A stretch of DNA of 64,000 nucleotides. Source: Jatrophihabitantaceae bacterium (GTDB lineage: Bacteria > Actinomycetota > Actinomycetes > Mycobacteriales > Jatrophihabitantaceae). Made by a program: the position numbers and the translations under genes. The stretch covers positions 1,885 to 65,884 of the forward strand of contig DASTXN010000171.1 in NCBI GenBank assembly GCA_035765515.1. The letters run 5' to 3'. The notes beneath the pieces are model-generated. The model had not been told where the DNA came from. It searched no databases and saw only the letters and a program-made list of their open reading frames with translations. Positions 26,491 through 28,014 of this stretch are shown here, piece by piece; the first letter of the stretch is position 1; each line of letters starts with the position of its first letter.

Positions 26491-28014
26491 GTGAACAGCG
26501 CACCCAGACACGCAACCCACCGGCTTCCCGGAGCGCGCTGGCAGCGGCCGGCCAAGTATCTGGTTGCCGTCGCCCTGCCGGTAGCACTGCTGCTCGGCGT
26601 GACACCGAGCAGCACCGCCGACACGACACCGACCGACACGAGCTCCGGCACGACGACCACTACGACGACCAGCACGCCCCCGCCGTCGCTGCCGCCGGCG
26701 CCGGACGGCTTCGCGGACCAGATGGTCGCGGTCTACCAGGCGGAGTACGACGCGGCCGGCGCGCTCGGACAGGCCGACGGGCTGCAGAGCGTCGCGACCT
26801 ACCAGCAGCAGGTCGCGACGATGACCCCTGACGACCTCGCCGCGATGTACTACGCGACGCAGCAGTACCCGCAGTGGGCGCAGCTGCCGGAACTGCTCGA
26901 CACGATCACCGCCGATGCCACCGCGCCGGCACCCAACGCCGCCCTCGTCCGACCACTGACCGAAACCACCCCGTCGCCGGACGCCACCACCGTCACCGAC
27001 AAGTCGTGCCCGTTCAGCGACATCCCCACTTCGGCAATCTTCGCCGCGGAGATCACCCTCGACGTCGCCAACGGCACCCACGAAACGCTGGACGCACTCG
27101 AGTCGGCCGGCATCGAGGGGGAGGCGTTCAAGCCCGCGGCCGTGGCCTCGGTCGTCGTGGCGATCGCGGCGGAGATCGTGCACAGCACGCTGGAATACCT
27201 GCACGACACGTTCCTCGAGTGCTTCTCCGAAAATCAGGCCGAGCGGCTGAAGAACGTCGACGAGACGACGGTCGAGACGTACAACCTGCTCGCCAACCTG
27301 GCCGGCACCGTCGCCGACATCAAGACCGACACCGGGACGATCGAAACGAACGTCGAACAAGTGTCGACCAAGATCGACACCATGGAGCAGAGCCTGGCAC
27401 AGGAGATCAGCGACGAGCTGGACAAGGTCCAGAGCACGGTCGGCAGCGACACGCAGCTGAACTCGACGCTGCTTCAGACCCTGCAGACCGCGGTGCAGCA
27501 GAACGACACCGTGCTGCAACAGCTGATGAGCTCGAACACCAAGACCGTCGTCAGCGAGGTCGACAAGGACACGTCCACCGTGCAGGGCTCGCTGTCGCAG
27601 ACGGAAGCGCACCTGATCGCCGAGGTGGACAAACAGGCGCAGAGCCTGAGCAGCCTGGTCACCCAGGCGCAGCAGCAGCTCAGCAACTCCATCAACAGCG
27701 GCTTCGACACTCAGCAGCAGAACTACCTCGCCAACCTGAAGCTGACGATCGAGAACGCGCTCGCCAACGGTGTCAACGTCGTGGAGTTCTCGCTGCCCGC
27801 GTCAAAGGGCGGCTATCTGGACGCGAAACCGGTCGGCGTGCAGGAGGTCGTCACCGACGACATGAACGCCTACCAGCAGCTGGGGATCAGCGTGCCGACG
27901 ACCGCGCTCAACAACTTCAATCAAGCCAACTCGCAACTCGGCGCCGGCCAGTACCTAGCGGCCTACGGCAGCTACATCAAGGCGTATCAAGCACTGAAGC
28001 CGACCGGATCATGA
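26491..28014 (+). CDS. secreted protein: signal peptide, Thr/Pro linker, helical domain and long hendecad-periodic coiled coil (no family recognised)
   Basis: GTG start 16 nt after the upstream stop, with RBS GAGGAG. Hydrophobic signal LVAVALPVALLLGV. TTTTTTTSTPPPSLPP linker. Q/T/S/L-rich helical region. Confidence 0.7.
   Translation: MNSAPRHATHRLPGARWQRPAKYLVAVALPVALLLGVTPSSTADTTPTDTSSGTTTTTTTSTPPPSLPPAPDGFADQMVAVYQAEYDAAGALGQADGLQSVATYQQQVATMTPDDLAAMYYATQQYPQWAQLPELLDTITADATAPAPNAALVRPLTETTPSPDATTVTDKSCPFSDIPTSAIFAAEITLDVANGTHETLDALESAGIEGEAFKPAAVASVVVAIAAEIVHSTLEYLHDTFLECFSENQAERLKNVDETTVETYNLLANLAGTVADIKTDTGTIETNVEQVSTKIDTMEQSLAQEISDELDKVQSTVGSDTQLNSTLLQTLQTAVQQNDTVLQQLMSSNTKTVVSEVDKDTSTVQGSLSQTEAHLIAEVDKQAQSLSSLVTQAQQQLSNSINSGFDTQQQNYLANLKLTIENALANGVNVVEFSLPASKGGYLDAKPVGVQEVVTDDMNAYQQLGISVPTTALNNFNQANSQLGAGQYLAAYGSYIKAYQALKPTGS
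27310..27771 (+). repeat. about 14 consecutive 11-residue (hendecad) repeats within CDS 26491..28014
   Basis: Cutting the peptide from VADIKTDTGTI into 11-mers keeps hydrophobic residues at positions 3/4 and 7 in register (TVLQQLMSSNT / KTVVSEVDKDT / STVQGSLSQTE / AHLIAEVDKQA / QSLSSLVTQAQ / QQLSNSINSGF). Confidence 0.55.

Follow-up and report, generated by a model that had tools for sequence, protein, structure and literature searches.

An exported helical protein with eleven-residue periodicity beside an Ig-repeat giant: sequence evidence for an unannotated superfamily and a possible role at the cell surface

We analysed a 64,000-nucleotide stretch of DNA (the window) from a Jatrophihabitantaceae bacterium, positions 1,885 to 65,884 of contig DASTXN010000171.1 in assembly GCA_035765515.1, and within it the gene for a 507-aa exported all-alpha protein that lies between the genes for a secreted Ig-repeat giant and a small lipoprotein. 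An earlier, sequence-only reading of this gene had described an 11-residue (hendecad) coiled-coil rhythm and had suggested that the product serves the neighbouring giant. The 11-residue observation is confirmed, profile comparison indicates that the protein belongs to a previously unannotated, well-delimited superfamily with a clear modular plan, and the proposal that it is a surface-fibre accessory or anchor partner of the giant, which is made by association, is partly supported.

The locus and the encoded protein

The gene opens with a GTG codon 16 nt past the stop of the upstream 1524-aa gene, and its own stop overlaps the ATG of the 146-aa lipoprotein gene as ATGA. The positions of these genes, of the flanking features and of the segments of the protein are collected in Table 1.

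Table 1. Features of the module in the window and segments of the 507-aa protein.
Feature	Position	Strand	Basis
SARP/AfsR-type regulator, co-directional, upstream	18363..21815	+	Pfam BTAD 6.7e-25, AAA_16 1.6e-23
Secreted giant, 1524 aa, Big_1/Invasin_D3 Ig-like repeats	21900..26474	+	Pfam Big_1 3.6e-68 in 10 stretches
Ribosome-binding site AGGAG, 5 nt before GTG	26481..26485	+	Read directly from sequence
Gene under study, 507-aa exported all-alpha protein, unnamed family	26491..28014	+	Open reading frame list, homologue and profile searches, dN/dS
Signal peptide, residues 1-43: R/K-rich n-region, h-region YLVAVALPVALLLGV, likely cleavage after SSTA and before D	26491..26619	+	Sequence; KD19 1.82 at residues 20-43
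Thr/Pro-rich linker, residues 44-66	26620..26688	+	Sequence
Four-helix N-domain, conserved, residues 67-143 (PPAPxGFA...YYATQQxPxWxQxP)	26689..26919	+	AlphaFold, conserved columns
Low-complexity variable linker, residues 144-172	26920..27006	+	pLDDT ~38; highest dN/dS of the protein
Cys-bounded helical hairpin, residues 173-244	27007..27222	+	Invariant Cys pair, KD19, dN/dS, pLDDT 62-79
Hendecad-periodic helical region, residues 245-426, breaks near 280, 318 and 358; strongest signal 274-427	27223..27768	+	Fourier analysis; AlphaFold, indels, conserved Gly
Conserved C-domain, residues 427-507 (LPASxGGYLDAxPVGVQEVV ... ANxxLxAGQYxxAYxxYxxAYQA)	27769..28011	+	pLDDT 85-97, invariant columns
Lipoprotein, 146 aa, lipobox LTAC, two conserved Cys	28011..28451	+	Sequence; homologues behind the family gene in ~18 loci
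tRNA-Arg (TCT), bounds the module	28507..28581	-	ARAGORN

The signal peptide, the poly-Thr/Pro linker and the helical head holding a hydrophobic stretch that had been described for this secreted protein are all present in the sequence; the cleavage site was placed by inspection, without a dedicated predictor. The AlphaFold2 model that we used was computed from a 36-sequence alignment and has a mean predicted local distance difference test score (pLDDT) of 68, a 10-sequence run (pLDDT 46.8) having been discarded as too poor. In the retained model the end domains score about 90 and the middle of the protein 40-55, with the hairpin at the values given in Table 1. The four N-domain helices span residues 74-91, 101-109, 113-124 and 127-142. 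After the variable linker the chain runs from C173 through an amphipathic helix (AIFAAEITLDV) into a hydrophobic helix at residues 216-230, which starts as AAVASVVVAIAAEIV at residue 216 and includes IVH, and from there to C244. No part of the superfamily is conserved more widely than the C-domain; in a PDB profile comparison, 28 of its residues aligned with designed consensus TPR chains at E 0.5-5, which does not reach significance.

The composition had been called Q/T/S/N-rich and unusual, and it is: residues 245-426 contain 12.6% Q, 7.7% N, 10.4% S and 13.2% T, compared with 3.6, 3.9, 3.9 and 4.7% in the neighbouring EttA. The rod region is net acidic (25 D+E, 9 K+R). The window has a G+C content of about 0.69, which falls to 0.666 across 26001-28000, where AT skew reaches +0.29, and this dip and skew over the helical gene fit Q/N/T/S/K-rich coding.

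Arginine accounts for 0.2% of the family part after the hairpin, compared with 5.4% of EttA and 9.9% of the SARP regulator, which are cytoplasmic, and 1.8% of the secreted giant. From the signal peptide, the scarcity of arginine and the invariant cysteine pair we place the whole mature protein outside the membrane. A topology with the N-terminus outside, a transmembrane (TM) helix and a cytoplasmic C-terminal part was considered and rejected on account of the arginine content and the cysteine pair.

A superfamily missing from curated libraries

Scans against Pfam, NCBIfam, PHROGs and PADLOC yielded no more than coiled-coil noise below threshold (Apolipoprotein, the ZorA tail, JetC, LmuB). The weak PADLOC matches fall on residues 217-426 of P0001; ZorA is matched in its long helical tail (E 6e-5 and 4e-4), JetC and LmuB in their coiled coils, and we read all of these as compositional or coiled-coil noise, not homology. 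Searches of the PDB with phmmer and with a 66-sequence profile gave nothing significant and no ClyA/Hbl-type match at E <= 10, and Foldseek comparison of the 36-sequence model with the PDB and BFVD gave no match below E = 0.1.

A word-indexed search brought in 10 relatives and another profile search left the family at 9 proteins, while a profile search run exhaustively over 1.84 billion representatives returned 390 clusters at E <= 1e-3, of which 77 reach E <= 1e-30. These are clusters at 50% identity, and 390 is a minimum figure. The earlier statement that the protein has no recognisable family is therefore right for the curated libraries and wrong beyond them, where an unannotated family exists. 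Whatever its function, a superfamily of at least 390 clusters with so clear a modular plan merits a family entry. The family is defined by a full-length profile match together with C173 and C244 and the C-domain motif P436, G441, L443, V450 and A491; these residues are invariant in 66 sequences, and the window protein carries all of them and matches the profile over its full length. Many relatives align in two stretches, an N-terminal and a C-terminal part, with a middle of differing length, and short forms lack about 114 residues.

All members seen derive from metagenomes or metagenome-assembled genomes (MAGs). Named records belong to Acidimicrobiales/Acidimicrobiaceae, to one unclassified Actinomycetota MAG and to two Bacillota MAGs, and a large distant branch with the same plan and with overt 11-mer sequence repeats (for example VDAAKTTIVDK VEATKTTIVDT VEAAKNTVAAK) lies in Acidobacteriota (Blastocatellia, Pyrinomonadaceae). 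The source databases call all of them 'hypothetical protein' with two exceptions, a 'TPR repeat protein' and a SufB label that is evidently an error. A single family copy is present in the window's genome. The family was not found in 400 other sampled genomes of the phylum, 200 of the class and 120 others in the order of one Acidimicrobiaceae carrier, figures that set a floor, given the strict first filter applied for class and phylum and the 14 candidates scored per genome for the order.

Many homologues (those of loci L001, L004, L005, L006, L007, L015, L017, L019 and L020) carry an extra module of about 100 aa after the signal peptide, with the pattern …TLTQS..TV..G….TVTG…PTGTVTV.D.ASG.T.C…ATYGGD…; it appears Ig-like by eye, is uncalled by Pfam and is lacking from the window protein.

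Eleven-residue periodicity

Over residues 274-427 the Fourier transform of hydrophobicity peaks at 3.66 residues with a power of 106. Shuffled sequences reached band maxima (3.0-4.2 residues) of 35.5 +/- 11.3, and none of 1000 attained 106 (simple z 10.7). The same stretch has a power of 104 at 3.667 residues compared with 38 at 3.5, which favours an 11/3 over a heptad period; residues 247-275 are rather heptad-like. Almost without exception the long-form homologues have their peak at 3.63-3.67, as does the profile averaged over the family (0 of 1000 shuffles). Counted from residue 274, the hydrophobic positions in the average of 36 homologues are 3, 4, 7 and 11, the canonical a/d/e/h hendecad core. 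The 11-residue hydrophobic rhythm claimed from residue 274, at positions 3/4 and 7, was thus recovered by Fourier analysis and gains position 11. The accompanying description of about 14 in-register repeats holds for the periodicity of residue types, which is real, but no single sequence is copied 14 times. When the region is cut into 11-mers, the pieces are mutually more alike than shuffles (BLOSUM62 z = 5.4); 7-, 15- and 18-mers are not.

An 11/3 period is also found in exchangeable apolipoproteins and apolipophorin III (PF01442, PF07464), and the window protein has a weak Pfam Apolipoprotein match (E 0.006, 16.7 bits), with similar sub-threshold matches in its homologues. A lipid- or surface-coating amphipathic protein of the apolipoprotein, LEA or perilipin kind would account for both, but the match scores far below the gathering threshold of 90 bits for PF01442, and the helices have a narrow hydrophobic stripe (4 of 11 positions), scarcely any Lys or Arg and a net negative charge, on all of which class-A lipid-binding helices differ. 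We consider a lipid-coating role highly improbable.

Gene order across lineages

In about 20 independent monoderm loci an Ig-repeat giant without an anchor lies directly upstream of, and co-directional with, one family gene or two tandem copies. The window and about 16 further independent loci share an Acidimicrobiia-type order, in which a Big_1 giant of 1500-1750 aa is followed by one or two copies of the family gene and then by a protein of 145-200 aa that has a lipobox or a TM helix as its anchor; the genes of these modules overlap or are separated by at most about 30 nt. The two closest orthologues (92% and 83% identity) have a downstream layout identical to that of the window. Searches of Pfam and the PDB for relatives of the window's 146-aa lipoprotein found none.

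The giants end right after an Ig domain, with neither a sortase motif nor a TM segment. In the 1524-aa giant of the window no LPXTG-type or other sortase motif was found, and KD19 hydrophobicity exceeds 1.6 only at residues 8-31, the signal peptide. The type of repeat varies: two Bacillota MAGs have He_PIG giants in the upstream position, a TIG-domain protein lies upstream of the short form P0011, and a short form in genome G205 is preceded by a Big_1 and TIG giant with start/stop overlap. Since the repeat type (Big_1, TIG or He_PIG) changes with the lineage, the upstream giant is not necessarily homologous from one lineage to the next.

A SARP regulator (BTAD and AAA_16) is also found upstream on the contig of the closest relative (P0003), the sole contig extending far enough in that direction, and is missing from the Acidimicrobiia loci, so this regulatory coupling is lineage-specific. 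In Acidobacteriota the family gene stands alone, without Ig giants. Of the three loci inspected there (L044 9001-10401, L045 7000-8211, L046 9001-10281), two have it just after Reg_prop/Y_Y_Y sensor regulators and the third beside an extracytoplasmic function (ECF) sigma factor and Ser/Thr kinases.

The tree shows that the helical gene was duplicated in tandem at least four times independently (L001, L003, L004/L005/L015, L021/L022). Locus L002 has the order copy, small protein, copy. Two loci from long-read MAGs, L008 (8010-8474) and L009 (7950-8552), hold only C-terminal or partial family fragments and a fragment of the small protein, with no giant detected upstream; they may reflect frameshift errors or decayed copies.

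Continuous rod or segmented helices

The hendecad-periodic middle could be extended as a rod some 27 nm long or could fold back on itself as a bundle; we lean slightly towards segmented helices. AlphaFold2 predicts helices at 211-279, 284-316, 322-356 and 361-426, pieces of about 33-66 residues separated by breaks at 280-283, 317-321 and 357-360. Indels within the family fall at 276-282 and 356-359, the same sites as predicted breaks, and G318 and G360, kept in 90% and 60% of long forms respectively, both lie at predicted breaks. Across the superfamily, between 79 and 244 residues separate the second Cys from the C-domain; steps of modulo 11 in this length were sought and none were seen. Coherence of the register across the predicted helices has P ~0.06, which is not significant alone, and we dropped it as proof of a single continuous helix. 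We also rejected a hetero-oligomeric in-register rod built from tandem paralogues that co-vary in length, as recent lineage-specific duplications in the tree explain the equal lengths.

Hendecad (11/3) coiled-coil stalks occur in surface structures such as the tetrabrachion of Staphylothermus marinus, and the stalks of trimeric autotransporter adhesins contain hendecad and pentadecad segments. The present protein resembles these in being extracellular, alpha-helical, associated with a large surface protein and built on the a/d/e/h 11-residue rhythm. It differs in having no sequence or fold match to them, in the conserved Gly residues and indels that interrupt the region, and in its two flanking globular helical domains and Cys-stapled hydrophobic hairpin.

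One alternative takes the protein for an independent structural component of the wall or envelope, for example a homo-oligomeric hendecad rod of up to about 27 nm that spans the wall and is co-transcribed with the giant without binding it. The hendecad pattern is real and conserved, rod length varies widely, the observed deletions of 7 and 4 residues are of the sizes that a continuous coiled coil tolerates (11 = 7 + 4), and the Acidobacteriota relatives combine overt 11-mer repeats with the lack of a giant. Against these stand the coincidence of G318 and G360 with the AlphaFold breaks, the missing modulo-11 quantisation and weak register coherence, and the near-obligate adjacency of Ig giants in monoderms, which speaks for a functional link. 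On balance we think an independent rod unlikely. The suggestion that the protein is a coiled-coil stalk or scaffold for the Ig-repeat giant fares in two ways: the link to the giant is strongly upheld by gene neighbourhood, whereas the stalk is left in doubt by G318, the indels and the predicted breaks. Independently of its role, the hendecad region offers a natural length-variant series for studying 11/3 helical assemblies.

The hydrophobic hairpin and selection

The segment between the two cysteines is 62-74 aa long and has a KD19 of 1.8-3.1 in every member examined, 1.87 in the window protein; in homologues the hydrophobic helix attains values like those of TM segments. Comparison with the 92% and 83% identity orthologues gave whole-gene ratios of nonsynonymous to synonymous substitution (dN/dS) of 0.10 and 0.17, which indicates purifying selection on a functional gene. 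The hairpin is by far the most constrained segment (dN/dS 0 and 0.03, at dS ~0.6) and the linker at residues 144-172 the least (0.19-0.30). With these two orthologues, dN/dS revealed no hypervariable part and no sign of diversifying selection.

A hydrophobic segment within an otherwise soluble exported protein is a trait of the ClyA superfamily (ClyA; Hbl/Nhe; YaxAB/XaxAB; AhlABC/SmhABC), whose members are likewise all-alpha, about 350-500 aa long and hydrophobic at one end; Hbl and Nhe are also Sec-exported, and two or three tandem paralogues are encoded. The window protein could on this analogy be a membrane-active component of a bi- or tripartite pore former of the ClyA/Hbl/Nhe/YaxAB type, in which the hydrophobic helix would be shielded in a bundle before inserting, the giant would make contact, the paralogues would be partners and the lipoprotein would protect the producer. 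Sec-type export, the conserved helix between the cysteines, the strong constraint on the hairpin, the repeated origin of tandem paralogues and the coupled small membrane-anchored protein downstream, a typical arrangement for an immunity gene, are what such a system would have. However, no Hbl-, HlyE- or Xax-type Pfam match was found even at E <= 1, the PDB profile searches were empty, and Foldseek against the PDB gave only generic helical bundles at E > 0.5, with no ClyA-family chain in the top 50, from a model whose middle has a pLDDT of 40-55. The invariant Cys pair and the obligate Ig-giant neighbourhood set the protein apart from the ClyA superfamily, uniform purifying selection is unlike that of antagonistic toxin and immunity pairs, and an acidic rod is poorly suited to binding anionic membranes. 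We judge a pore former to be quite unlikely. The membrane-active alternative that had been raised as the more speculative option found no positive support in the Pfam, PDB profile and Foldseek searches, although the conserved hydrophobic helix between the cysteines remains unexplained.

A possible adaptor or anchor subunit for the giant

We tentatively favour, at somewhat less than an even chance, the reading that the protein serves the Ig-repeat giant outside the cytoplasm as its adaptor or anchor subunit. The anchorless giant would be the fibre of a cell-surface module, the helical protein its adaptor or positioning subunit and a spacer between membrane and fibre, and the small lipoprotein, coupled by stop/start overlap, the membrane attachment point in the window's lineage. 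Contacts with other proteins, presumably the giant and the lipoprotein, would be made through the end domains (67-143 and 427-507), the hendecad-periodic middle would act as a helical spacer of adjustable size, and the hairpin, stapled by a putative C173-C244 disulfide, may serve as an oligomerisation core or as a membrane-embedded foot. This reading draws on a gene order that is kept in different phyla and with different Ig types, on giants without an anchor, and on the combination of conserved ends with an adjustable middle; the ATGA overlap implies translational coupling to the lipoprotein and counts in its favour, as do the extracytoplasmic location and the purifying selection.

Several observations weigh on the other side. 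The Bacillota loci have no small protein, and the Acidobacteriota branch has no giants, so the fold has a function that needs none. The helices, if split as modelled, may fold back into a bundle, which would not suit a spacer, and a hairpin helix of such hydrophobicity (KD19 up to 3.1) is superfluous in a pure adaptor.

Tight coupling of the gene to giants whose Ig types differ, conserved end domains and a membrane-anchored small partner would also be expected of a dedicated extracytoplasmic assembly or folding factor, a chaperone-like protein that handles the giant and stays outside the final structure. Scans of curated libraries showed no similarity to known foldase or chaperone families, a long helical region of variable length has no obvious place in a chaperone, and the Acidobacteriota relatives have no client giant; we hold this to be very unlikely.

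The known anchors of fibrillar adhesins (LPXTG/sortase, SLH, and the intimin/invasin beta-barrel for Big_1 arrays) hold a fibre on the cell, as the adaptor proposed here would hold the Ig-repeat giant. In the present loci, by comparison, a polypeptide distinct from the fibre, together with a lipoprotein, is the candidate anchor or adaptor, and none of the known motifs is present in the giants. A survey reports that an anchor is not known for nearly half of fibrillar adhesin-like proteins (PMC8286594), which makes an anchoring device that acts in trans plausible, and the same survey describes no such partner family (PMC8286594). A more general proposal, on the doubtful side in our estimate, is that monoderms mount fibrillar Ig-repeat proteins independently of sortase, with the anchor supplied in trans by a lipoprotein and one or two helical adaptors, alike for Big_1, TIG and He_PIG giants. 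If the adaptor reading is true, this partner family, which occurs in two phyla beside giants of three Ig types, would offer a concrete candidate for the attachment or assembly device that is missing.

Further giants

The window encodes a second giant at 11128-15330, a protein of 1400 aa with an RCC1 propeller and He_PIG, TIG and Big_9 domains, which adjoins no member of the helical family. At locus L043 (G205:C296) two consecutive giants, one at 1-3531 (PKD and beta-propeller) and one at 3531-7607 (Big_1 and TIG), share a C-terminal ending, a Thr/Pro-rich tract followed by G(T/A)CTGWSCW(L/F)(G)R, and the stop of the second giant is also where a short-form family member begins. Judged from the sequence, this shared ending may be a C-terminal tag for sorting or processing of a kind not yet described.

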